64,000 bases of DNA, taken from the IMG/VR virus record IMGVR_UViG_3300037587_000312, positions 32,552 to 96,551 of that record; one strand, written 5' to 3'. The DNA is from a virus (Duplodnaviria > Heunggongvirae > Uroviricota > Caudoviricetes). The translations under genes were made by a program, and so were the position numbers. Positions 682 to 42,299 of the stretch are shown piece after piece. The notes beneath the pieces were generated by a model. That model was not told where the DNA came from. It ran no database searches and saw nothing but the letters and a program-made list of their open reading frames with translations. Positions within the stretch are counted from its first letter, which is position 1, and every line of letters begins with the position of its first letter.

Positions 682-2496
682 ATGACCAGAAAAGTAATTG
701 GTAGTATAGTCAATACAGTTGGCTTTGAGATTGATAAAACATCTTGGAAGAATCTTAATAAGTTCCAAGAGAGAATTAGGGGTCTTAAGAAAGACATGAA
801 AGGTCTCTCTGGTGGAATCTCTATAAAGGGTTCAGGGGGATTTGGAGGGAGAGGAAATGCAAACCCCATTACACGGATCAAGAAAGAATCGGATGCCCAT
901 GTAGCTGCATATCATAAAGTTTTGAATATGAAGAAGAAGGCTCAGACTAAAGCGATCATTGAAGAGAGAAAAAGAACCCGTGCATCAGGAGCAGCCTCGA
1001 GAAAAGAGATTGCGAGTGATCATATTAAAGCCCTCTCTGAGAATATAAGAAGAAAGAAAGCAATAGCTAAGCGGAGCGAAACAGCTGATCTGAGAGATGT
1101 TGCTAGCAGTGATGTTCTTACTGGGATGAAAGGTAAACTGACACCAGCTGCCATTCAGTCTAAAAAGAAACAATTAGATGGTCTTTCCGAAGCCTATAGA
1201 AAAGGAACTATTTCCAAAGCCCACTACAGTCAAATGTCAAATAGGGTTGTAGCTGGGATGAGAAAGGAAGCCCGTGCGGCTGGTGGATTAAGTTCCAAGT
1301 TTATGGATCTGCGCCGGAACATGCTTGGTATAGGTATTGCTGGTACAGTTTTAGCTGGCGCGTCTGGTCTGATGAGAACTGGACAAAACTTTGAATCCAT
1401 GGGTGCTAAGATGCTCATGGCTACAGGTGGGGCCAAGCAAGCAGCAGAGGCTATGGATTTAGCTAGAAAGCAGAGTAAGAGATTAGGTCTTGATTTACTT
1501 TCAACAGCAGACTCACTAGCCCGTTTAGGTATTGCAGCCGATCAGAAATTAACAAAGGGTGAATTTAAAGAACTTTTTATCTCCTTCTCTGAATTAGGTG
1601 CAGCAGCTCAGCTACCAAAAGAGCAAATGGACCGTGGTCTTCGTGCTTTGGAGCAAATGCTGAACAAAGGCCAGTTAATGGCGGAAGAAGTAAAAGGTCA
1701 GTTCTCAGAAGCAATTCCCGGTGGTATCCGAATATTCGCTGATGCGTTAGGCATGTCAGAACAGGCATTTTTCAAGGCGATGGAAGCTGGTAAATTAATG
1801 TCGAAAGATGTTTTACCTAAAGTCGCCAAACAAATGGCCATAACAGCCCGTAAGGGTGGCGCTCTTTCCACAGCGATGGATACGAACAGAGCCTCCATGA
1901 ATAGAATGATTACTGCATTCCAGACTTTCCAGAAAAAGATTTTTGATGCAGGTTTTTCTAAAGTATTAACAGAATTATTTAATACCTTTACAGATTTGTT
2001 TACTGTTCTCGGTCCTCTTGCCACAACTACCATGGCAGCACTGACTACAGCTTTCCAAGTATTCACTTTCCCATTAAGAATCGCAGCAGCACTTATAGCG
2101 GATTTCATGGCATTCTTCGGGATGGATGAACAGAATAATGTATCCAAAATGACGGGTATTTTCATAGGTTTCGCTGGGGGAATATATATCCTAGTTAAAG
2201 CTATTCAGGCTCTAGCTAAGGCTAAATTAGTTCTGATGGCTATAGCGAGTCCCGGTAAGGCTCTTGCAGGAATAGCTGCAGTTGCAGCTATCTACGGAGG
2301 AGAGGCAGCTTATAATTACTATTCAGATAGGAACAAAGCATCTCAGAAAGGTTCTTCGATGAAAGCCAACTCCAAACAAGAGGTCTTTGTTAGGCTTGAA
2401 GGTGATATGGATAAACTGGATGGATTTGTTAAGTATAAGATTTCAAATAATAATGATGCGATAGCAAAAGAGCTTCTAACTAATATCCCGAGGTAA
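682..2496 (+). CDS. tail tape measure protein
   Basis: 604 aa, Ala/Gly/Lys-rich with predicted coiled coil and C-terminal hydrophobic segments. Sits between the chaperone frameshift pair and baseplate genes. Confidence 0.7.
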   Translation: MTRKVIGSIVNTVGFEIDKTSWKNLNKFQERIRGLKKDMKGLSGGISIKGSGGFGGRGNANPITRIKKESDAHVAAYHKVLNMKKKAQTKAIIEERKRTRASGAASRKEIASDHIKALSENIRRKKAIAKRSETADLRDVASSDVLTGMKGKLTPAAIQSKKKQLDGLSEAYRKGTISKAHYSQMSNRVVAGMRKEARAAGGLSSKFMDLRRNMLGIGIAGTVLAGASGLMRTGQNFESMGAKMLMATGGAKQAAEAMDLARKQSKRLGLDLLSTADSLARLGIAADQKLTKGEFKELFISFSELGAAAQLPKEQMDRGLRALEQMLNKGQLMAEEVKGQFSEAIPGGIRIFADALGMSEQAFFKAMEAGKLMSKDVLPKVAKQMAITARKGGALSTAMDTNRASMNRMITAFQTFQKKIFDAGFSKVLTELFNTFTDLFTVLGPLATTTMAALTTAFQVFTFPLRIAAALIADFMAFFGMDEQNNVSKMTGIFIGFAGGIYILVKAIQALAKAKLVLMAIASPGKALAGIAAVAAIYGGEAAYNYYSDRNKASQKGSSMKANSKQEVFVRLEGDMDKLDGFVKYKISNNNDAIAKELLTNIPR

Positions 2497-2500
2497 ATAT

Positions 2501-3154
2501 ATGTCATTTGTTATAATTGCTTCTGGAGGAGAGGGGTTCAGGACTTTAGATAATACTATCCCTCAAGTTTATAATTTTGATGCAACTGTTTCTTTAACTT
2601 CCAGACGAACAGCTAATGTAACTAGCCACCCCGTAGAGGGTGGTAGCACAGCGAGTGAACATGTTGTTGTTAGTAATACTATTGTAGATCTTGTTGGCAT
2701 TATCGTTCAAATCCCAATGCCTAAGCCTTATCATGAAATAAATAGGGGTAATGATGTAATAGAGGCATCAAGGGATGGTTTGGATTTAGATAGAATCCAT
2801 GCAGCCACTGACGTACTTGTGAAAGTATTCAATGATAGAGAACTTATTACAATATCCTCAGAGATTGATGTTTTCCCCAATTGTATCATCACAAGTCTCA
2901 ATTTACCGAGAACTGCTGAGATAGGGGATACTCTCAGAATAGAGATGACTCTCGAACAACTTCAAATAATCCAACTGGAGACTACAGAGGTTTCTAAAGA
3001 AATATTTGATTCAGCAGCGGCGAACAAGAAGATAGGTGGAACATCCTCTGTCGATTCTGATAACCCTGATAATAGTACTACAGAGAAAACAGTGTTGAGT
3101 TCTGTAGAGAAACAACTAGCTAACTTTTCTGGTTCGTTAGGATCGATATTATAG
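2501..3154 (+). CDS. tail/baseplate assembly protein (unassigned family)
   Basis: RBS gagg then ATG. In tail operon immediately after tape measure. Confidence 0.35.
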   Translation: MSFVIIASGGEGFRTLDNTIPQVYNFDATVSLTSRRTANVTSHPVEGGSTASEHVVVSNTIVDLVGIIVQIPMPKPYHEINRGNDVIEASRDGLDLDRIHAATDVLVKVFNDRELITISSEIDVFPNCIITSLNLPRTAEIGDTLRIEMTLEQLQIIQLETTEVSKEIFDSAAANKKIGGTSSVDSDNPDNSTTEKTVLSSVEKQLANFSGSLGSIL

Positions 3155-3166
3155 AGGATAGAATAA

Positions 3167-3499
3167 ATGCTTTTACTTCCAACAAGTACATTACCAGACT
3201 ATACACAGACTGTTGTTCTTGATGGTGTGAGTTATGATCTGAGACTTCAATGGAATACACGAGAAGAGGCTTGGTATGGGTATCTAGGTCCAACAGGACT
3301 TCCCTTCTTGATTAAAGTAAAGATTGTAAATGGTTGGGATCTATTACGACCATTCAAGTATATTGAGGGAATACCTAAAGGTGAACTCTACTTAATCGAT
3401 GTAGTGGCTAGTTGGGGAAGACCAACAAGATCAGAAGTTATCCAATTAGGAAGGTTCAATCTTGTGTATGTCACAAAGGAGGAATCTGATGCCGTTTGA
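3167..3499 (+). CDS. hypothetical tail protein
   Basis: ORF in tail operon; its stop overlaps the next start (ATGCCGTTTGA). Confidence 0.3.
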   Translation: MLLLPTSTLPDYTQTVVLDGVSYDLRLQWNTREEAWYGYLGPTGLPFLIKVKIVNGWDLLRPFKYIEGIPKGELYLIDVVASWGRPTRSEVIQLGRFNLVYVTKEESDAV

Positions 3500-4406
3500 T
3501 CGTCAATATAGACTCGAGATAGCAAAACCTGTAACAAAAGATATTGCTTTCCCTTTAAATGAGAATATGTTGTCTGGCTCAAGAGGTACGTCACTTATTC
3601 TTACTGACCACCAAATTACTTTTGAAATTAAGAAGACATCTGGTGCAGCTTTGAATCAGACTAAAATCGAAATTTCTAATCTGTCACCTGATAGTTTTGG
3701 ATTCATAAGTAATTTCAGGGGACAAGAGGTTTATTTAAAACTAGTAGGTGGTTATGTAGATGATATTAAAACTCTTCTAACTGGGCAAGTTGTTGCTGTT
3801 GGGGATACCTTCGAAGGTCATACTCGGAAGACAGAAATTACAGTTACTGAGGGGTTTACTAACGCAAAGGAGGCTAGATCCTCTTTTTCTTTTCTACCGG
3901 GAACCCTTCACTCAATTATACTTTCTGCACTAATGAATGATCTTGGTCTTCCTCAGGGTATCATTATTCGACCAAAAACTATTACCAAGGCTCCTTGGTC
4001 TTGGGAAGGAAAGACAATAGAGGCTTTGAAGAAACTAGCACTAGATACAAATTCTTCATTCAGTTTACAGAATTCTACAATACATTTTACTCCCCACCAA
4101 ACAAAAGATTTGGTTACTGTTAATAAATATACCCCGACGACAGGGTTGATTGGATCACCTTCTGCTCTCTCTGATGCGTCTAATGTTCCGCAAGATAATA
4201 AAAGTGCTCCCAAGGTGGGAATAAAGTTCAAGGTGGATCTTGATGGCTCTCTTTTACCAGATACACTGGTTAAAATAGAATCAAGAGAATATGAAGGTGT
4301 GTTTAGAATTCACAAGGTTAAGCATAGAGGTGACTACAGGGGAACAACTTGGGTCACTGAATGTGAAGCCTCTCAGCTATCCCCTTTTATTGAGGGAGAG
4401 GTATAA
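3489..4406 (+). CDS. putative baseplate hub protein (XkdQ / late-control-D-like)
   Basis: Start refined to ATG 3489 after RBS aggagg. Synteny with PBSX/P2-type baseplate clusters. Confidence 0.35.
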   Translation: MPFDRQYRLEIAKPVTKDIAFPLNENMLSGSRGTSLILTDHQITFEIKKTSGAALNQTKIEISNLSPDSFGFISNFRGQEVYLKLVGGYVDDIKTLLTGQVVAVGDTFEGHTRKTEITVTEGFTNAKEARSSFSFLPGTLHSIILSALMNDLGLPQGIIIRPKTITKAPWSWEGKTIEALKKLALDTNSSFSLQNSTIHFTPHQTKDLVTVNKYTPTTGLIGSPSALSDASNVPQDNKSAPKVGIKFKVDLDGSLLPDTLVKIESREYEGVFRIHKVKHRGDYRGTTWVTECEASQLSPFIEGEV

Positions 4407-22897: not shown

Positions 22898-22956
22898 TAC
22901 TTCTGATTTCTATCTATTCTACACGAAAATAGTTGTATGTCAACAGTAGAAAGCAC

Positions 22957-22984
22957 TTGACACAGGTATAAATAGGGTTAAAAT
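22957..22984 (+). promoter_or_regulatory. sigma70-like promoter TTGACA-N16-TAAAAT
   Basis: Near-consensus hexamers ~25 nt upstream of the small ORF at 23010. Confidence 0.4.
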
Positions 22985-26426: not shown

Positions 26427-26642
26427 ATGACAAATACTTTGGACAAACTATTTAAAATTTTCTTCTCTGCCGCAGGTTTCCTCCTAGCAGCGCAAGTATT
26501 ACAAGGTATGATGGTTGCCCAGAACCAATCACCAGATTTTACACTGTCTATTCTGTTCACTGTAGGGATGTTGGGTGGTATCGGCAACCTCGTAGCTGTC
26601 TGCCTGATTGCCCATGAAGACAACAAAAAGGAGTCAAAATAA
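26427..26642 (+). CDS. small membrane protein (2 TM)
   Basis: Hydrophobic segments. RBS aagagg. Confidence 0.35.
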   Translation: MTNTLDKLFKIFFSAAGFLLAAQVLQGMMVAQNQSPDFTLSILFTVGMLGGIGNLVAVCLIAHEDNKKESK

Positions 26643-26643
26643 T

Positions 26644-27759
26644 ATGAAATTACTTCAAGCCGTACAAGGTGATATCAAAGCAGTTCGTTCAGAGAACTAC
26701 AACTACGAATTCAACATGGAGAATGGTGCGTTCATGCGCTGGGGTAAGACATTCGAAGATGATCCTGACTATGCACCGTTCCCAGAGATTCTGGATATTG
26801 AGATCACATCCAAGTGTAATGGTCCAGCGGGAAAGTTGTGTAACTTCTGTTACAAGAGTAACAATCCGAAAGGTCACAACATGCGTTTTGATATGTTCAA
26901 GAACATCATTGATAAGATGCCCTTCCTGACTCAGATTGCCTTAGGTGCGGATGCACAGGGTATCACCAATCCAGATATGTTCAAGATGATGGGTTACGCC
27001 CGGAGCAAGAACATTATCCCAAACCTGACCATTGCTGACGTATCTTGGGAAGTAGCTGAGAAATTGAGTAAGGTTGCTGGTGCTGTTGCAGTCTCTGTCT
27101 ACAAGCATGCAGGCTTCGATGTAGCATTCGATTCTGTTAACCGTCTGGCTGTATCTGGACAGAAGCAAATCAACTTGCACTACATGATCTCTAAGGCAAC
27201 CCTTGCAGATGCCTATAAGGTTGTTGACGCGATGATGCTAGATTCTCGTCTAGAGAAGGTCAATGCCATCGTATTCTTATCGTTAAAGCAAAAGGGTCGT
27301 GGACTGCGGCATGAGTATGTTACTCAAGAAGAATACAAAGCCTTGGTTGATCATTGTTTGAAGAACAAAATCCCATTTGGTTTCGATTCATGTTCAGCCC
27401 CAACCTTCTTAGACTCAGTAAAGGAACATGAACACTTTGATAAGTTCAACCAAATGGCTGAGCCTTGTGAGAGTACGTTGTTCAGTTCCTATGTGAATGA
27501 GTACGGTCATTTCTACCCTTGCTCCTTCACTGAGAAGTGGAAGGAAGGTGATTGGTTAGAGGGTATCGACGTTGTTGCAGCAGAGAAATTCATCGAAGAT
27601 GTGTGGAATCACCCAAAAACTGTTGACTTCCGTGAGACTTTGATTAATAATAAGGACTCTAACGGATGCCGTCAATGCCCTGCGTATAACGTATGTGGTA
27701 AAGAGTCCATCCCAGACAAATATAAGAAGCAGACTATTGAGGTGGTTAATATTGGGTAA
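26644..27759 (+). CDS. radical SAM enzyme with C-terminal Cys-rich SPASM/twitch-like domain (putative peptide/protein-modifying maturase)
   Basis: EITSKCNGPAGKLCNFCY core (non-canonical CX7CX2C). C-terminal DSCSAP, EPCES, YPCSF and GCRQCPAYNVCG cysteines. Start refined to ATG 26644 after aaggag. Confidence 0.55.
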   Translation: MKLLQAVQGDIKAVRSENYNYEFNMENGAFMRWGKTFEDDPDYAPFPEILDIEITSKCNGPAGKLCNFCYKSNNPKGHNMRFDMFKNIIDKMPFLTQIALGADAQGITNPDMFKMMGYARSKNIIPNLTIADVSWEVAEKLSKVAGAVAVSVYKHAGFDVAFDSVNRLAVSGQKQINLHYMISKATLADAYKVVDAMMLDSRLEKVNAIVFLSLKQKGRGLRHEYVTQEEYKALVDHCLKNKIPFGFDSCSAPTFLDSVKEHEHFDKFNQMAEPCESTLFSSYVNEYGHFYPCSFTEKWKEGDWLEGIDVVAAEKFIEDVWNHPKTVDFRETLINNKDSNGCRQCPAYNVCGKESIPDKYKKQTIEVVNIG

Positions 27760-31415: not shown

Positions 31416-32699
31416 ATGAATCTATCAGGCAAACAAATTCTAGGATGGGGTGGCTCAGCAGTAGGTGCTATTGCTCTGGCTGTCGTAATGGCTACAACAA
31501 TGGGCATCAACAACGCGGGTTATCGAACGGTAATTCAGGGTGTCGGAGGTGATATGAGCGTCAAGTATGATGCCGGTATTTACTTCCCGATGTTTGGTAA
31601 GACCACTGAGTATCCTGATTACCTGACGTATGACTTCAGTGCAAAGGATAAGTCCTGTGACTTTGAAGAGAACGATGGTATCAAGGTACGGTATCAGGAT
31701 GGTGGTGAGGGTGTAGTATGTGGGATGGCTAACGTAATGTTGCCTGTTGCTGGTGATGAGGAAGCCATGATCGCTTTCCACAAACGTTATCGTTCTGAGG
31801 CCGGTGTGCGAGCTAAGCTGCTGAACCAGACGTTCCCTAAGGCTCTGAACCTGACTGCTGTACTAATGAGTTCTGAGGAAGCCTATGCTACCAAACGTTC
31901 TGAGTACATTTCGATGGGTCGTGATCAGGTGGAGAATGGTTTGTATAAGACCAAACTCGTTGAGAAGAATGTACAGGTTGGTATTGACTCTGATGGCGAG
32001 CCTGAGATGCAGTTGAAGGAAGTCCCTCAGATCGTTATGGTCGGTGGTCTTGCTCAACATGACGCTAGTGATCTAACTCAGTGGGGTTTAACCCTCTCTC
32101 AATTCGACTTGAAAGCTTGGGACTTTGAGCCTAACACTCTGACCCAAATCCGTAAGAAACGTGCTGCTGAGATGGCTATCGTAACTGCTAAGGCTAATGC
32201 TAAGAAAGCTTATTGGGAGGAGCAGGAAGTTGTAGCTAACGGTGCCAAGAATGCTGCTGCAGCTAAGGCAGATGCTATTACCGCCGCACAACCGTTGATC
32301 GAGAACAAACTGCGCGACAAGCAATTGGCGATCATTGCAGCTGAGCAACGTACCGCGACTGCTATTGAGAACACTTTGGCCGCTAAGGAAGAAGAGAAGC
32401 GTCAACGTGCATTGGCTAAGGCCGCAGTTCAGGAAGGTAAGAAGATCAAGACCTTGGCCTCTGCTGAGAAGTTCCGTCTTGAGTCTATCGCTGAAGGTGG
32501 TGAACTACAGATGCGTCTGCACACTGCTGAAGTCATGAACAAGGATGCTTGGGTAGAGATTGGTAAGCAGAAATGGACTCCTGAGATCGTTATGGGTGGT
32601 GGTGAAGGTGGTCAGTTGAATGAAGTACAGGCAATGGTACAGACACAATTGATTAAAAACCTTCAGAATGTGGGTATCAACTCTGGTATTCCTAAGTAA
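31416..32699 (+). CDS. SPFH/band-7 (flotillin/prohibitin-like) membrane protein
   Basis: ATG 31416 after aagaggaag. N-terminal TM helix. Long Ala/Glu/Lys-rich coiled-coil region typical of flotillin/HflK-like proteins. Confidence 0.45.
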   Translation: MNLSGKQILGWGGSAVGAIALAVVMATTMGINNAGYRTVIQGVGGDMSVKYDAGIYFPMFGKTTEYPDYLTYDFSAKDKSCDFEENDGIKVRYQDGGEGVVCGMANVMLPVAGDEEAMIAFHKRYRSEAGVRAKLLNQTFPKALNLTAVLMSSEEAYATKRSEYISMGRDQVENGLYKTKLVEKNVQVGIDSDGEPEMQLKEVPQIVMVGGLAQHDASDLTQWGLTLSQFDLKAWDFEPNTLTQIRKKRAAEMAIVTAKANAKKAYWEEQEVVANGAKNAAAAKADAITAAQPLIENKLRDKQLAIIAAEQRTATAIENTLAAKEEEKRQRALAKAAVQEGKKIKTLASAEKFRLESIAEGGELQMRLHTAEVMNKDAWVEIGKQKWTPEIVMGGGEGGQLNEVQAMVQTQLIKNLQNVGINSGIPK

Positions 32700-33728: not shown

Positions 33729-34649
33729 ATGACTTGGGATACAATTAATCGGATGGATAGTACTGACACAGATGTTTGTAAGTTTGTGTTCACCAAAGAC
33801 GATGCCGTAGCAGAGGCAGTTCTCTATAAGTATGGATCTTATAAGGACCGTACTGTTATCTGCTGCTCTACTCAATCAGGCTGTCCTATGGGCTGTACAT
33901 TCTGTGGAACAGGTAAGCAGTTTATTCGTAATCTGACTACAGATGAAATTGTTGCTCAGGTTAAAGCATGTCTTGATCATGCGTTCTATAATCACGGTAC
34001 ACTCTATTCCGATATTGATAAGTTCCAGATCATGTTTATGAGTATGGGTGAGCCTATGCTTAACTGGAAAGCCCTTAAAGACGCCATCCAGATCCTTCAC
34101 TATTCTTATCGGAATGCTGCACTGTTGATTTCAACCAGTGCTCCTGAAACTATTGTGGCGTTCGGTGAGCTTATTGAATTGTCGAAAGAGATCCCACAAA
34201 TAGGTCTACAATTTTCAGTTCACGAATCTTTACAGGAAGAACGTGACAAGCTGATACCTTTCAAAAAGAAACTCTCATTACGGGGGTTGGCTGCGACAGG
34301 AGAGGCATGGGCATATCAAACAGGTCGTAAGGTTTACTTTAATTACTGTGTCCATGAGAAGAATAATGGTGTGGAGGACGCTCAGCGGCTCTCTGAACTG
34401 TTTAAGCCTGAGATGTGGGAAGCCACCATCTCCGTGATCTGTGAGGCTGATGAAAGTGTGTCTGCGTCCATTGAAAGGCAGGAGGAATTAGCTACAGATT
34501 TCTCTGGACTTCTACTTGAACAGGGTTATAATACACGAGTATTCAATCCAGCAGGTCAGGATGATATCGGAGGTGGCTGTGGTCAACTTTGGTTCACCCA
34601 AGAATGGATGAAGAACAACCCTGACAAAGTACGTAAAACACGAGGATAA
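33729..34649 (+). CDS. radical SAM RNA methyltransferase, RlmN/Cfr family (N-terminally shortened)
   Basis: VICCSTQSGCPMGCTFCGTGKQFIRNLTTDEIVAQV parallels the RlmN motif [33 protein letters not shown]. Also MSMGEPMLN (GEP) and a C-terminal GGGCGQL. Confidence 0.6.
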   Translation: MTWDTINRMDSTDTDVCKFVFTKDDAVAEAVLYKYGSYKDRTVICCSTQSGCPMGCTFCGTGKQFIRNLTTDEIVAQVKACLDHAFYNHGTLYSDIDKFQIMFMSMGEPMLNWKALKDAIQILHYSYRNAALLISTSAPETIVAFGELIELSKEIPQIGLQFSVHESLQEERDKLIPFKKKLSLRGLAATGEAWAYQTGRKVYFNYCVHEKNNGVEDAQRLSELFKPEMWEATISVICEADESVSASIERQEELATDFSGLLLEQGYNTRVFNPAGQDDIGGGCGQLWFTQEWMKNNPDKVRKTRG

Positions 34650-36276: not shown

Positions 36277-36362
36277 GGAAGATTGGCAGAGTGGTAATGC
36301 AGCTGGTTGCTAACCAGTAGTGTCGAAAGGCACCGTAGGTTCGATACCTACATCTTCCGCCA
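36277..36362 (+). tRNA. tRNA-Ser (anticodon GCT), class II, CCA encoded
   Basis: Acceptor GGAAGAT/ATCTTCC, 3-bp D-stem, anticodon loop TTGCTAA, long variable arm, T-loop TTCGATA, 3' GCCA. Confidence 0.6.
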
Positions 36363-36372
36363 GTTTAATATA

Positions 36373-36465
36373 CCCCGCGTGGTGGAATGTATACGCACCG
36401 CAATTAAAATGCGACGACTTCGGTCATGAGGGTTCGAGTCTCTCCGTGGGGACCATTTTAGGGTA
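36373..36465 (+). tRNA. tRNA-Leu (anticodon TAA), class II, CCA encoded
   Basis: Acceptor CCCCGCG/CGTGGGG (one GU), anticodon loop ATTAAAA, variable hairpin GAC-TTCG-GTC, T-arm GAGGG-TTCGAGT-CTCTC, 3' ACCA. Confidence 0.55.
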
Positions 36466-36475
36466 AGGGAAACAA

Positions 36476-36982
36476 GTGAAGATGATTTGGAAAGATGTAG
36501 TTGGTTTTGAGAACTACTTTAAAATAAGTAATCATGGGGATATCTATTCATATAGAAGTGCTAGGGTTTTAAAAAGAGTTAAAGACAAATCGGGATATCT
36601 CACACTACCCACCAAAATTGGTGGTCGGGAAGGTAAGGATTATTGTTTTAAGATCCACAGGTTAGTGGCCATAGCTTTTATTCCTAATCCTAAGGGGAAA
36701 CCTTGCGTAAACCACAAAGATGGGGATAAGGAGAATAATCATATCTCTAATCTAGAATGGTGTACTGTTAAGGAGAATACTCAGCATGCTTTTGACACAG
36801 GGTTATCGAAAGCCTTAAAAGGGGAGAAGAATGTAGGTTCGAGGATTTCCCAAGTAGATGCCGATACTATAAGATTGGTATATACCCCATATTGTAGAAC
36901 CTACGGAGCACGGGCATTAGGAAGAAGATTTGGTATCTCTCACTCCAATATACTCAAAGTTATAAATGGTATTTCATACTAG
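36476..36982 (+). CDS. HNH homing endonuclease (NUMOD4 + HNH_3) inserted in tRNA cluster
   Basis: WKDVVGFENYFKISNHGDIYS (NUMOD4) and HRLVAIAFIPNPKGKPCVNHKDGDKENNHISNLEWCT (HNH_3). Confidence 0.65.
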   Translation: MKMIWKDVVGFENYFKISNHGDIYSYRSARVLKRVKDKSGYLTLPTKIGGREGKDYCFKIHRLVAIAFIPNPKGKPCVNHKDGDKENNHISNLEWCTVKENTQHAFDTGLSKALKGEKNVGSRISQVDADTIRLVYTPYCRTYGARALGRRFGISHSNILKVINGISY

Positions 36983-36988
36983 AATTTT

Positions 36989-37078
36989 AGGACTGACGCA
37001 GGTATTGGTTTGCCTGCACTCGCCTCATAAGCGAGTCTCTTCTGAGCGTTGTGGGTTCAATTCCCTCCGGTCCTACCA
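36989..37078 (+). tRNA. unusual tRNA with anticodon CAT (Met/Ile2-type) and a 15-nt variable region
   Basis: Acceptor AGGACTG/CGGTCCT, D-arm GCAGG-N10-CCTGC, anticodon arm CTCGC-CTCATAA-GCGAG, T-arm GTGGG-TTCAATT-CCCTC (one mismatch), 3' ACCA. The long variable arm is atypical for CAT tRNAs. Confidence 0.35.
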
Positions 37079-37086
37079 CCTATTAA

Positions 37087-37163
37087 GCGCCGGTGCCTCG
37101 AATGGATAAGGGCTGGGATTGCAAATCTCATGTTTGGCAGTTCAAGTCTGCCACGGTGCTCCA
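37087..37163 (+). tRNA. tRNA-Cys (anticodon GCA), CCA encoded
   Basis: Acceptor GCGCCGG/ACGGTGC (6 of 7 pairs), anticodon arm TGGGA-TTGCAAA-TCTCA (same loop as E. coli tRNA-Cys), T-arm GGCAG-TTCAAGT-CTGCC. Confidence 0.55.
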
Positions 37164-39519: not shown

Positions 39520-39860
39520 TGAATAAGACTATCCAATTGTTCATTCGAGCTTGTAAGGCAAAGGATGCAGATAAGCGTTTGCGTAGTGTATATCGACGCT
39601 TCTATTACTCAACTGATTGTAAGAAAACGCAGGATGCTGCCCTTGTCCATATCCTGAGTAAGATTTGTGAGGACCATGCACCTATTAGGTTGACTATTCT
39701 TATGGATCGGTTGAACCCTGAAAACCATTGGCAATATGGGATTACCTCAGATGAAGGGTTCAACTCCGCTGCCATAAAAATTCTGACTTCTCATCTCAGG
39801 TTCCTTAAGAAGGATGACCTAAAAGGGTTGACTTCTCCAAGGAGGTTCCGAGATGACTGA
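39519..39860 (+). CDS. hypothetical protein
   Basis: ORF. Confidence 0.3.
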   Translation: MNKTIQLFIRACKAKDADKRLRSVYRRFYYSTDCKKTQDAALVHILSKICEDHAPIRLTILMDRLNPENHWQYGITSDEGFNSAAIKILTSHLRFLKKDDLKGLTSPRRFRDD

Positions 39861-40059
39861 TAGGCCATATCCACCGGCACCTCCCGAGCCGCCACCCAAC
39901 AGGAAAATGTGCGGGTTCTGTGGGCATACAGATACAGCGGATAAATATAAGCATTTCTGTAAGTCTGGATTTGCACTGATGATAGGGCTTGCATCTTTAC
40001 CTGCTATATTGATTGCACTCTTCGGGGTAAAACTTTTACAGATGGGAGGTTTACTATGA
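39853..40059 (+). CDS. small proline-rich membrane protein with CxxC
   Basis: ORF. Confidence 0.3.
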   Translation: MTDRPYPPAPPEPPPNRKMCGFCGHTDTADKYKHFCKSGFALMIGLASLPAILIALFGVKLLQMGGLL

Positions 40060-40253: not shown

Positions 40254-40279
40254 AAGGGGTTGACACCACCTATTTGAAC
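40251..40279 (+). promoter_or_regulatory. sigma70-like promoter TTGACA-N17-TAAACT
   Basis: Upstream of monocistronic gene 40324..40647, which is followed by a terminator. Confidence 0.45.
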
Positions 40280-40323
40280 CTGTAAACTAGTCTTATCAAA
40301 TCAATAAACAAAGGTAATAAACC

Positions 40324-40647
40324 ATGACTACTCCAAACACTGTTCTGACTGCTGAAGCTCAATCTGCCAAAGAAGCTATTGAGTTTGCTGGCTCCAAAGG
40401 CAAGATCTTCACTGTCACCTTCAAGAAGAAAGATGGTTCTGTTCGTGAGATGAATGCCCGACTGCATGTGGCTAAGTACACCTCAGGTGGTACTCGCTCC
40501 ACCGCAGGTAACCCGAACATCATGGGTCTGTATGATATGAAGCTCCGCAAAGAGTTGACTGAGGCAGAAGGCAAACGGGCTTACCGTTCACTGGACCTTA
40601 ACCGAGTTATCTCTGTTAACGGTCGTGGCTTTCGACTGACCAAGTAA
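40324..40647 (+). CDS. hypothetical protein, likely abundantly expressed (own promoter and terminator)
   Basis: RBS aaggtaataaaccATG; flanked by promoter and terminator. Confidence 0.4.
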   Translation: MTTPNTVLTAEAQSAKEAIEFAGSKGKIFTVTFKKKDGSVREMNARLHVAKYTSGGTRSTAGNPNIMGLYDMKLRKELTEAEGKRAYRSLDLNRVISVNGRGFRLTK

Positions 40648-40657
40648 ATCGAATCTA

Positions 40658-40690
40658 AGGGACTGCCAAATTTGGTAGTCCCTTTTTATT
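40658..40690 (+). terminator. rho-independent terminator
   Basis: agggactgccaaa/tttggtagtccct palindrome followed by TTTTATT. Confidence 0.5.
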
Positions 40691-40934
40691 GGGAGAAAAT
40701 TATGTACGGCTTTGAGAGTATGATCGATATGGGTTTGGATCTTGGTGGTGAATGGACAACACCGGATCATCGAATTGTCGCAGTCAATGCATGTATCTGC
40801 AATCCAAATGTTGCATGTATGGATGATCTGATGAAGAATGTAGAGATCATTAATAATATCCCTACAGAGGATATCCGCACGATTACTCTTGAAGGATTGC
40901 TCACTCTCGGTTGTTATTTATAAAGGAGAAAACT

Positions 40935-41111
40935 ATGATTATTTTGTGGACAGTTGTTGGTGTTATTCTTGGCTGGATGTCCGTTGAGGTGTTGACTTCA
41001 ATGACCAAAATGTTTTTCTCATCATTAATCAACATTGGAATGGCCTTTGTTGGTGGTGTGATTGCCTATACTTGGGTATCGGGGGGACTCAATGCCTGTA
41101 TGCAGCGTTGA
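40935..41111 (+). CDS. small 2-TM membrane protein
   Basis: RBS aaaggagaaaactATG; overlaps the channel gene start region. Confidence 0.3.
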   Translation: MIILWTVVGVILGWMSVEVLTSMTKMFFSSLINIGMAFVGGVIAYTWVSGGLNACMQR

Positions 41112-41514
41112 TGAATACGGTGTAAAGAACTACAGTATCACTAGTCTGATGGCTCTCGGTGTAGGGTTAATCATTGCAGCTATCTTTGGATTTGCTTGGG
41201 TCTTCCTACAACTGGAAGCAGGGCATCCTGATGCTAACGTGACCACTTATAGTGATGCTGTGTGGCTAATGGCGATGGCATCAAGCACAATTGGCTTTGG
41301 TGACTTCTACCCTGTCAGCTTAGGTGGTCGATTCATTACCTTTATCATGTTTATCCTAGGTATTGGATTAATGGGCTTTGTTGGTGGACTTGTCGCATCG
41401 AAGTTGTTAGGATGGTCCGATACAAATGTAAAGAACCGTGAATTGCGTAGTCAAAATGCAGAGATCCTTGAAATGCTAAAGGATCTTAATAGACGAGCTG
41501 ATACCAACAGCTAG
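41092..41514 (+). CDS. minimal 2-TM potassium channel (Kcv/KcsA-type pore)
   Basis: TM1, pore helix and selectivity filter TIGFGD, then TM2. Start uncertain (TTG 41062, ATG 41092 after gggggg, or ATG 41149). Confidence 0.6.
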   Translation: MPVCSVDEYGVKNYSITSLMALGVGLIIAAIFGFAWVFLQLEAGHPDANVTTYSDAVWLMAMASSTIGFGDFYPVSLGGRFITFIMFILGIGLMGFVGGLVASKLLGWSDTNVKNRELRSQNAEILEMLKDLNRRADTNS

Positions 41515-41588: not shown

Positions 41589-41617
41589 TTGACAGGGCAA
41601 GAAAGGTTGGATAGGAT
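41589..41617 (+). promoter_or_regulatory. sigma70-like promoter TTGACA-N17-TAGGAT (with upstream TATAAT at 41577)
   Basis: Lies in the 175-nt gap before 41691. Confidence 0.35.
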
Positions 41618-41930: not shown

Positions 41931-42299
41931 ATGTTATTTTTAAGAGTTTTATTGACAAATTGTGTACTGTGGGGGTTATTTTATCTCTCAGAATTTAAAG
42001 ACATAAGTGGTGTTGGTGGTCTACTTACCATCTTCATCACAATAATGGCTATTTGTATCCTTATTGGTGGTTGTGTTATAGTATATACCGATAAGTGGGA
42101 TAGTAAGGATATTGAAAAGGCGTTGGAAACACCCATAAGATCAGCGATAGTTCAGACCCTCGGCATGACCTCTTCCTTTTCAATGGTTTATCTTATGCTA
42201 AGTCATGGTTGGGGTTATACAGGGGTTGTGTTACTCTTACAGATGATAATGGTATGTACTCTTCTAACCAAATTCTATAAACAGGTATTTAATAAATAA
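41931..42299 (+). CDS. multi-pass membrane protein
   Basis: Three to four hydrophobic segments. Confidence 0.35.
   Translation: MLFLRVLLTNCVLWGLFYLSEFKDISGVGGLLTIFITIMAICILIGGCVIVYTDKWDSKDIEKALETPIRSAIVQTLGMTSSFSMVYLMLSHGWGYTGVVLLLQMIMVCTLLTKFYKQVFNK

Follow-up and report, generated by a model that had tools for sequence, protein, structure and literature searches.

What would a tailed phage gain from a potassium (K+) channel of its own? The question is raised by a gene at positions 41092 to 41514 (plus strand) of a 64,000-nucleotide (nt) stretch of viral DNA (Caudoviricetes; positions 32,552 to 96,551 of IMG/VR record IMGVR_UViG_3300037587_000312), the whole of which is referred to here as the window. 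A sequence-only reading had assigned to this gene a protein with an outer transmembrane helix (TM1), a pore helix, the K+ selectivity filter TIGFGD and an inner transmembrane helix (TM2), and this layout was borne out by the match to KcsA, by Pfam and by a structural model. With high confidence, the product is a K+ channel by molecular identity. The reading preferred here combines this identity with a general mode of action, that is, K+ conductance in the membrane of the infected cell; it is held at a probability of about 0.75, and more weight is placed on it than on any specific benefit. In the literature searched, no phage-encoded K+ channel had been expressed, recorded or knocked out.

The open reading frame (ORF) claimed for the gene was exact, running from ATG to stop and encoding 140 amino acids (aa). 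The longest possible version starts with the TTG at 41062 and encodes 150 aa. The ATG at 41092 is favored because it is preceded by a G-run 5 nt upstream and because independent gene calls and the starts of the homologues agree with it: the 140-aa product was called independently on two public assemblies, and the homologues in an alignment of 35 sequences start 5–7 residues ahead of a conserved DEYGVKNY motif, as does the protein starting at 41092. In order, the protein consists of MPVCSVDEYGVKNYS, a hydrophobic helix, QLEAGHPDANVTTYSDAVWLMAMASS-TIGFGD-FYPVSLGGR, a second hydrophobic helix, and SKLLGWSDTNVKNRELRSQNAEILEMLKDLNRRADTNS. Its parts are located as follows (the bases of each assignment are given in brackets; model and alignment are the structural model and the 35-sequence alignment).

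41092–41514, plus strand: K+ channel coding sequence, ATG to stop, 140 aa, a two-transmembrane pore subunit of the KcsA type (ORF list and sequence)
41081–41086, plus strand: GGGGGG, a ribosome-binding-site-like G-run 5 nt before the ATG at 41092 (read from the sequence)
41101–41133, plus strand: N-terminal β-hairpin, predicted to be cytoplasmic, aa 4–14, with the motif VDEYGVKNY (model strands 4–6 and 12–14; alignment)
41137–41217, plus strand: TM1, the outer helix, aa 16–42 (model; hydropathy peak at aa 21–39)
41248–41286, plus strand: pore helix, aa 53–65 (model; KcsA alignment; W58 invariant)
41287–41304, plus strand: selectivity filter T66-I67-G68-F69-G70-D71 (sequence; aligned with KcsA T75-V-G-Y-G-D80)
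41320–41409, plus strand: TM2, the inner helix, aa 77–106, glycine-rich (model; hydropathy peak at aa 84–102; alignment)
41410–41457, plus strand: post-TM2 motif G107-W-S-D-T-N-V-K-N-R-E-L-R-S-Q-N122 (alignment)
41419–41508, plus strand: C-terminal helix, predicted to be cytoplasmic, aa 110–139, corresponding to the helix of the KcsA C-terminal bundle (model; Foldseek match to full-length KcsA; length comparison)

All 28 invariant columns of the alignment are present in the window channel. They include D7 and Y14 of the N-terminal hairpin, T66 to G70 of the filter (D71 is nearly invariant, at 90% or more of the 35 homologues), the TM2 glycines G90, G92, G95 and G98, and, in the post-TM2 motif, G107, D110, T111, K114, N115, R116, E117, L118, R119, Q121 and N122. 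Apart from the filter, which in the model extends with its loop over aa 66–76, the post-TM2 motif is the longest conserved run of the protein. Both termini are predicted to be cytoplasmic because seven lysine or arginine residues follow TM2 and the loop between TM1 and the pore helix is acidic.

When all PDB sequences were searched with phmmer, KcsA entries came first (E 3.6e-12 to 1e-9, over aa 24–110), with STIGFGDFYPV opposite TTVGYGDLYPV and the tryptophan of the pore helix kept. The Pfam family Ion_trans_2 (PF07885; gathering cut-off 22.5 bits) was matched with 42.7 bits (E 5.1e-11) over profile positions 2–75 of 79, and PHROG 15627, which carries the name "cAMP-dependent Kef-type K+ transporter," with an E of 8.9e-27 over profile positions 11–138 of 227. 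NCBIfam yielded just weak, sub-threshold matches to larger voltage-gated channels and therefore no curated bacterial family name that fits the channel. Alignment to the pore regions of KcsA and Kcv had been proposed as a check, and both alignments were significant: KcsA with the E of 3.6e-12 given above, and Kcv of PBCV-1 with 4e-6 in a pairwise BLASTP comparison (26% identity over 66 residues comprising TM1, pore helix and filter).

An AlphaFold2 single-chain model was built on the 35-sequence alignment and reached a mean predicted local distance difference test score (pLDDT) of 87.4; it comprises the β-hairpin, TM1, pore helix, filter loop, TM2 and C-terminal helix. In the model, TIGFGD, which conforms to the pattern T-[VI]-G-[YF]-G-D, directly follows the helix at aa 53–65 and precedes TM2, so that the filter stands where the sequence-only reading expected a structure prediction to place it. 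KcsA was also the best match in this comparison: when Foldseek was run against the PDB, ranks 1–50 were all KcsA chains (probability 1.0; root-mean-square deviation 2–3 Å). Template modeling scores, normalized to the target, were 0.77–0.86 for truncated KcsA chains and 0.57–0.59 for two full-length chains, with 0.81 for the headline superposition; full-length KcsA (3EFF and 3PJS) was aligned over 120 columns, including the C-terminal helix. Among predicted viral structures, K+ channels of phages and giant viruses were the best structural matches.

The relatives of the channel are mostly found in bacteria. A search of 5.8 billion proteins returned 644 homologues, the best of which share 50–56% identity with the window channel at 88–99% coverage and are 133–181 aa long. 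Some of these best homologues lie on megabase chromosomes (Psychrobium, Thalassotalea, Thalassomonas and Motiliproteus); further ones are encoded in Ferrimonas, Colwellia and Oceanospirillaceae assemblies and in many marine metagenomes. With each species represented by one genome, a scan yielded 185 relatives; the best 80 of these carry labels of marine Gammaproteobacteria in all cases but one, none is labeled Vibrio, and identity reaches 54% at most. All 38 metagenome loci of at least 8 kb have cellular gene sizes (median ORF 180–330 aa, vs about 90–105 aa in phage-like loci) and no other gene in common with the window, and one homologue locus is plainly cellular (purE/purK and similar genes). 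Further phage-borne copies were sought among 80 metagenome loci, and none was found among those of at least 8 kb. The window channel shares the features of this short family, namely a length of ∼130–180 aa, DEYGVKNY and G[FW][SA]DTNVKNRELRxQN.

Among phage genomes, tblastn found relatives of the channel in 45 records, 37 of them Vibrio phages (including KVP40, phi-pp2, nt-1, ValKK3, VH7D, phi-Grn1, 1.081.O, 1.084.O, VPMCC14 and VCPH), at an identity of at most 41%. In a neighbor-joining tree (122 core columns, KcsA as outgroup, 100 bootstraps), the window channel fell inside the clade of the short form, apart from two clades of longer vibriophage channels, in 100 of 100 bootstraps; the long-form clades themselves were separated in 98–100 of 100. 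Its nearest neighbors in the tree are P0003 (78/100 bootstraps), to which it is 52–59% identical depending on the alignment, and P0008, from a short contig whose ORFs are small. Residue 108 is a tryptophan in the window channel, P0003 and P0008 and a phenylalanine in the cellular proteins.

The contig that encodes P0003 (L011; 54.8 kb; GCA_028254655.1, JAOKOV010000001.1) was deposited as a metagenome-assembled genome of a "bacterium." Its content is phage-like (rIIB, a SprT-like gene and small co-directional ORFs by the dozen), so that the contig is probably a viral sequence that was misbinned. Window and L011 are syntenic: at least six flanking genes occur in the same order, neighboring genes are 27–74% identical, and the genes in common include a radical-SAM-like gene, a SprT-like gene, a WYL_2-like gene (74% identical), the channel and the gene downstream of it. 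The proportions of nonsynonymous and synonymous differences (pN and pS) in the channel gene were 0.28 and 0.59 vs L011, and 0.28 and 0.73 vs a further contig with the channel, L012, which indicates that the gene evolves under purifying selection. Its GC content (0.437) and its GC content at third codon positions (GC3; 0.411) match the phage background. Scans of IMG/VR, for which the alignment or the protein alone served as query, gave pattern matches and no confirmed relative, as far as such scans reach, which rest on few exact peptide patterns that diverged copies could escape; because no relative was confirmed, the short form looks rare in catalogued viral contigs.

The simplest reading of these sequence comparisons would be that a lineage of uncultivated marine phages captured a bacterial short-form channel long ago, independently of the long-form genes of vibriophages, and then retained it under purifying selection. 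That the transfer was old is concluded because no cellular homologue exceeds 56% identity.

In cellular genomes, the channel gene often stands at the end of a gene cluster. In 30–33 of the 38 metagenome loci, the channel is preceded on the same strand by PspA/IM30 (Pfam E 1.7e-37) and by two proteins without a Pfam match (∼210–234 aa and ∼110–116 aa). The full order, as seen from precomputed Pfam labels in Psychrobium and on the Thalassomonas viridans chromosome, is DUF350, spermine-synthase-like, DUF2170 (YjfI), PspA_IM30 (YjfJ-like), the two unknown proteins and the channel, with gaps of 12–13 nt before the channel. The smaller upstream protein is 75–82% identical across five example genomes and looks ribbon-helix-helix-like by eye. 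Example loci are:

L097 1–5417 and L098 1–5471: Psp-type cluster with channel
L107–L118, about 2260–4400: Psp-type cluster with channel
L016–L092: Psp-type clusters in metagenome loci

Among the loci of the best 80 species genomes, 35 have the PspA-type arrangement, and ∼13 have instead ornithine-cyclodeaminase or DUF350, DUF1190 and glutathionylspermidine-synthase genes. About half of the cellular loci thus lack a position downstream of PspA, so that it is a frequent association and not a strict mark of the family; in the window, the gene is flanked by phage ORFs and not by PspA/IM30 and the two partners. PspA/polyamine operons of the YjfJ type have been described, with a K+ channel mentioned in one class (Ravi et al, 2024; PMC11237479). 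The association of PspA with the channel is therefore common without being universal, and part of it was known before.

The carrier of the window is an uncultivated marine contractile-tailed phage. On the structural side, a tape measure protein and a baseplate wedge/J protein are encoded; the enzymes include a DNA polymerase of family A, a primase-helicase, an ATP-dependent ligase and a nucleotidyltransferase. Small co-directional ORFs fill 22.9–52 kb. For the DNA polymerase, identity is 57% with Vibrio phage 277E43-1 and 53% with PWH3a-P1, both myoviruses of about 128 kb, and a whole-genome comparison with 277E43-1 found baseplate, tail and replication genes in common at 25–58% identity and nothing in common with the block at 33–52 kb. 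No close DNA match to the window was found by megablast in 50,697 phage records. An identical channel protein is encoded on a public metagenomic contig of 121.7 kb, where it bears the JGI label "voltage-gated potassium channel."

Other genes of the window lie farther from the channel. ARAGORN predicted tRNAs at 36277–37163 (Ser-GCT, Leu-TAA, Met-CAT and Cys-GCA), the first two of which only were confirmed at the Rfam gathering score, and an ORF for a NUMOD4/HNH homing endonuclease (36476–36982) lies between the two tRNA pairs. The window also encodes a 453-aa membrane-scaffold protein of the SPFH/Band-7 type (Pfam 25.4 bits vs a cut-off of 23.6; PHROG 11908, 1.4e-69) and two radical-SAM/SPASM-type proteins. 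Band-7 proteins are another class tied to PspA systems (Ravi et al, 2024; PMC11237479).

31338–32699, 26608–27759 and 33729–34649: the Band-7 gene and the two radical-SAM/SPASM-type genes (coordinates listed jointly)

Expression of the channel has to be judged from its immediate surroundings, which contain the following elements.

40260–40288, plus strand: nearest upstream σ70-like promoter, TTGACA-17-TAAACT, which drives the gene at 40324–40647 and, through read-through, possibly also the channel unit
40657–40684, plus strand: intrinsic-terminator-like hairpin, a 12-pair stem followed by TTTTATT, between the WYL_2-like gene and the channel unit
40702–40923, plus strand: ORF of 73 aa, no known family, first of a putative three-gene unit (73 aa, 58 aa, channel)
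40935–41111, plus strand: ORF of 58 aa with two hydrophobic segments and an AGGAG-type ribosome-binding site (sequence)
41589–41617, plus strand: σ70-like promoter, TTGACA-17-TAGGAT, within the 176-nt spacer that follows the channel; the next unit starts here

Over the whole window, TTGACA-N16-18-TAnnnT was counted 12 times, vs 3.15 times expected, a count reached in none of 100 shuffles, and all nine sites in the plus-strand block at 22.9–44 kb are co-oriented with the genes. Because the pattern is enriched and co-oriented, it fits transcription of this accessory block by the σ70 RNA polymerase of the host, which in phages would usually mean early. The sites span 14173–56055 (e.g., 22916–22984, 33206, 37851, 40260, 41589 and 43733), and those checked are co-oriented with the local genes; a back-to-back, divergent promoter pair at 22916–22984 marks where a replication module on the minus strand gives way to the accessory block on the plus strand. 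The putative three-gene unit spans 40702–41514, and the channel is probably expressed at a modest level by read-through of the terminator-like hairpin, or from a weak promoter-like site at 40911–40939. In the 176-nt spacer, Rfam found nothing beyond the tRNAs of the window; the spacer holds the promoter-like site and a weak hairpin.

The overlap of the channel start by a small ORF with two transmembrane segments, pointed out in the sequence-only reading, is real: the 58-aa ORF (40935–41111) overlaps it by 20 nt in a different frame. This ORF is probably a real gene. It had no match in Pfam, in PHROG or by tblastn against phages, and its sole homologue (P0122; 62% identity) is encoded on another phage-like contig, of 157 kb, with no channel near. 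Next to the channels of L011 and L012 the ORF is absent, and the upstream genes there are unrelated. An auxiliary channel subunit was considered and rejected on these grounds: there is no family match, the homologue comes without a channel, and other phage channels come without the ORF. The overlap is ordinary phage gene packing and not a two-component system; translational coupling is possible.

Four small ORFs with predicted transmembrane segments lie within ∼1.5 kb of the channel, none with a family match.

39853–40059: 68 aa
40935–41111: 58 aa, the ORF described above
41931–42299: 122 aa
42548–42805: 85 aa

The gene ahead of the hairpin (40324–40647) encodes a WYL_2/Sm-like SH3 protein of 107 aa, with a TTGACA promoter of its own ahead of it and a strong terminator behind. 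The protein is 74% identical to its L011 counterpart, which makes it far more conserved than its neighbors, and its gene has the highest GC3 of the region (0.48), by which a highly expressed early protein is suggested. No cultured phage matched it at an E of 1e-8.

How would such a channel act? By homology, four subunits would assemble in the host inner membrane into a K+-selective pore, and both termini of each would face the cytoplasm. Host σ70 RNA polymerase would transcribe the gene early or constitutively, probably weakly, by reading through the hairpin at 40657–40684. Seawater contains about 10 mM K+; with ∼0.4 M K+ inside the cell, the K+ equilibrium potential (EK) is about −95 mV. Since the membrane potential of a respiring cell is more negative than EK, the open pore would admit K+ and pull the potential toward EK. 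A phage-encoded K+ conductance free of host regulation would thereby refill and hold cytoplasmic K+, and it would buffer the membrane potential of an infected, envelope-stressed cell; a partial depolarization that hinders superinfecting phages may be a by-product or may be the benefit instead. K+ maintenance together with buffering of the membrane potential in the infected cell is tentatively taken as the most likely benefit, at clearly less than an even chance. A comparable task is suggested for the cellular homologues, which often end PspA/YjfJ membrane-stress clusters. Infection by T4 and T5 perturbs the K+ conductance of the host, with loss of K+ (Greiner et al, 2018; PMC6163359).

Several points weigh against this reading. 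No functional measurement of the channel, of its cellular family or of any phage K+ channel was found in the literature searched. We infer tetramer formation, K+ selectivity, gating and membrane insertion from homology, and the model is that of a monomer. The direction of K+ flow would depend on the membrane potential and the internal K+ of the host. Between the hairpin and the unit at 40702–41514, no good promoter was found; because of this lack of a direct promoter and the strong terminator-like hairpin, the level and timing of expression are uncertain. The channel gene was not found in the nearest cultured relatives, 277E43-1 and PWH3a-P1, and because it is missing there the channel is dispensable for this phage type. 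No ORF of the 64-kb window matches the partner genes of the Psp-cluster loci, so that membrane stress is linked to the phage gene by ancestry only. And of the best 80 species-genome loci, 30 show neither the PspA-type nor the ornithine-cyclodeaminase or DUF350-type arrangement.

Other benefits are less probable. Superinfection exclusion, in which an early channel lowers the membrane potential and so blocks DNA entry of later phages, comparable to Kcv in chloroviruses, is unlikely, yet it deserves consideration. An open K+ pore would pull the potential from about −150 mV toward EK, as follows from general electrophysiology, and the channel lies in a promoter-rich and presumably early block among many small membrane-protein ORFs; in chloroviruses, depolarization by Kcv limits multiple infection (Greiner et al, 2018; PMC6163359). 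However, a K+-selective pore clamps the potential near EK (about −95 mV), and depolarization would thus be just partial. Moreover, Kcv works during entry from an internal membrane of the virion, which tailed phages lack. No known exclusion gene stands beside the channel, and the defense families of PADLOC matched neither the channel nor four of its neighbors, the WYL_2-like protein or the Band-7 protein.

Counter-defense is a somewhat more doubtful explanation. Here, the channel would steady the membrane potential or K+ against abortive infection that collapses the membrane (RexAB-type), in the sphere of rII-like functions. In KVP40-like phages, the long-form channel gene lies ∼0.7–1.3 kb downstream of rIIA-rIIB, which are membrane-integrity and Rex-exclusion genes; in L011, rIIB lies 8.4 kb upstream of the channel in the same co-directional block, and the PspA membrane-stress clusters of the cellular homologues would also fit. 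The stretches that contain rII genes are:

L005 1–1787
L006 1–1160
L010 1–1989
L011 93–1619

In the 64-kb window itself, however, no homologue of rIIA or rIIB was detectable, gene proximity in the hyperplastic regions of T4-like phages is weak evidence, and in the literature searched no experiment ties a K+ channel to activity against abortive infection.

A more far-reaching idea builds on the cellular clusters. The phage may have taken the ion-conducting end piece of a "phage-shock-like" PspA/YjfJ module of its host and, with the piece under phage control, may use it to pre-empt or short-circuit the envelope-stress response, although we consider this improbable. If it were true, K+ and membrane potential would be fixed so that neither Psp-type signaling nor depolarizing abortive-infection responses could engage; the cytoplasmic hairpin and DTNVKNRELRxQN would be a docking or gating site for proteins of the host Psp cluster; and the phage copy, with its shortened C-terminal helix and F108W, would be a deregulated, constitutively open version.

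Very little speaks for a function in lysis timing, in which the channel would shape the potential threshold at which holins are triggered or would itself act late as a holin-like depolarizer. Holin triggering depends on the energization of the membrane, and the product is a small, putatively oligomeric inner-membrane protein beside other small membrane-protein ORFs. On the other hand, no endolysin, holin or spanin family was found in the genes scanned ∼3 kb to either side, and the channel lies in an early-type promoter block between replication modules, away from structural and lysis genes. For a holin, neither the strict conservation of the K+ filter nor the conserved cytoplasmic motifs would be expected, and the family is overwhelmingly cellular and chromosomal. 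With its canonical K+ filter, its K+ channel fold and no lysis-gene family among the scanned neighbors, the protein does not resemble a holin or pinholin. Least probable of all is a passenger, that is, a host gene recently caught in a hypervariable region and either without adaptive role or decaying: its absence from the nearest cultured relatives, the 33–52-kb block not shared with 277E43-1 and the lack of a close relative in the IMG/VR pattern scans would fit, but the absence of any cellular homologue above 56% identity indicates an old transfer, GC and GC3 match the phage, a diverged phage contig retains the gene in synteny, pN is far lower than pS, and the ORF is intact with all family-invariant residues.

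The preferred reading, a K+ conductance in the membrane of the infected cell, leaves the current understanding unchanged; a known category gains an independently acquired variant. It had been said that phage K+ channels are rare and poorly studied, which is fair, but they have already been catalogued, by Greiner et al (2018), in PHROG families and by automatic annotation such as the JGI label. The category as such is thus known. New are a phage lineage with a short channel of the bacterial type and not the long type of vibriophages, its independent acquisition, and the tie of the source family to PspA/YjfJ clusters. The 140-aa gene is a compact test case, with an intact filter, close cellular cousins and a second phage copy, and its ancestry provides a hypothesis for the phage and the bacterial family alike, namely control of K+ and membrane potential under envelope stress.

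Of the characterized channels, KcsA from Streptomyces lividans (pH-gated; PDB 1K4C and 3EFF) is the closest in design: TM1, pore helix, a TxGxGD filter, TM2 and a C-terminal helix are common to both, at an identity of just 24–30%. The filter is TIGFGD in the window channel and TVGYGD in KcsA. M62 occupies the position of KcsA E71 and L59 that of KcsA W68, two residues that govern inactivation of KcsA. At the position of His25, the pH sensor of KcsA, the window channel has Y14 and no histidine, according to a MAFFT alignment of low confidence there, and with G107 opposite KcsA G116 (HMMER), S109-D110-T111 fall in the region of the KcsA gating residues E118–E120. Because M62, Y14 and S109-D110-T111 replace the KcsA residues, the comparison predicts that the filter would not inactivate as that of KcsA does and that the gate would not be the histidine-glutamate pH sensor. 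The DEYGVKNY hairpin and the post-TM2 motif DTNVKNRELRxQN of the short family are absent from KcsA. They are found in the cellular short channels, which have the same architecture as the window channel, all 28 invariant residues and both cytoplasmic motifs. Relative to most cellular members, the C-terminal helix of the window channel is 10–30 residues shorter, and the gene lies in a phage accessory region without Psp partners.

The channels of vibriophages resemble that of the window in being phage-borne and in their filter, (T/S)T(I/V)GFGD (S65-T-I-G-F-G-D71 in the window channel), at 30–41% identity by tblastn. K+ channel genes have been reported for at least nine vibriophages and for mycobacteriophages and phages of Acinetobacter, Pseudomonas and Streptomyces, and as of that report the function of the vibriophage channels was untested (Greiner et al, 2018; PMC6163359). 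The following vibriophage channels were examined here.

L005 2468–3151
L006 2480–3166
L007 3001–3657
L008 2989–3582
L009 2989–3648
L010 3001–3660

These six translated long forms have 197–228 aa, whereas the window channel ends at aa 140, and all six carry an additional C-terminal domain of ∼90 aa with a GQDDSG motif that the window channel lacks; as G(Q/E)D(D/S)SG, the motif is conserved in all cultured-vibriophage channels examined. Over the core, identity with the window channel is 28–38%, and the two kinds form separate clades. The long forms keep weaker versions of the N-terminal element (KYDEHGVxQY) and of the post-TM2 element (FDKSIQNRVLKSQN). The channel gene of KVP40 is unannotated, and the annotated start in phi-Grn1 cuts off the N-terminus and part of TM1. 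In Vibrio phage VPMCC14, a gene of the glutathionylspermidine-synthase family (L007 1709–2986) stands immediately upstream of the channel, and the same family also occurs near the channel in some bacterial loci; in Vibrio phage 1.084.O (L009 128–2973), a Na+/Ca2+ exchanger gene and three TerD-domain genes lie upstream. Both neighborhoods look like phage gene islands for "ion and membrane stress."

Kcv, finally, shares with the window channel a virus-encoded minimal pore module and a TxGFGD filter. Of the "Kcv/KcsA minimal architecture" proposed for the window channel, the KcsA part holds and the Kcv part does not: Kcv has 94 aa and almost no cytoplasmic parts, whereas the window channel has 140 aa, of which ∼30 form a C-terminal helix, and its N-terminal hairpin is conserved, which sets it outside the Kcv type (about 80–125 aa, no cytoplasmic domains). 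Kcv resides in an internal membrane of the virion and is active while the virus enters its host, a eukaryotic alga (Greiner et al, 2018; PMC6163359). Unlike Kcv, the window channel is of bacterial-channel origin, and because tailed phages have no membrane, it must be made after infection.

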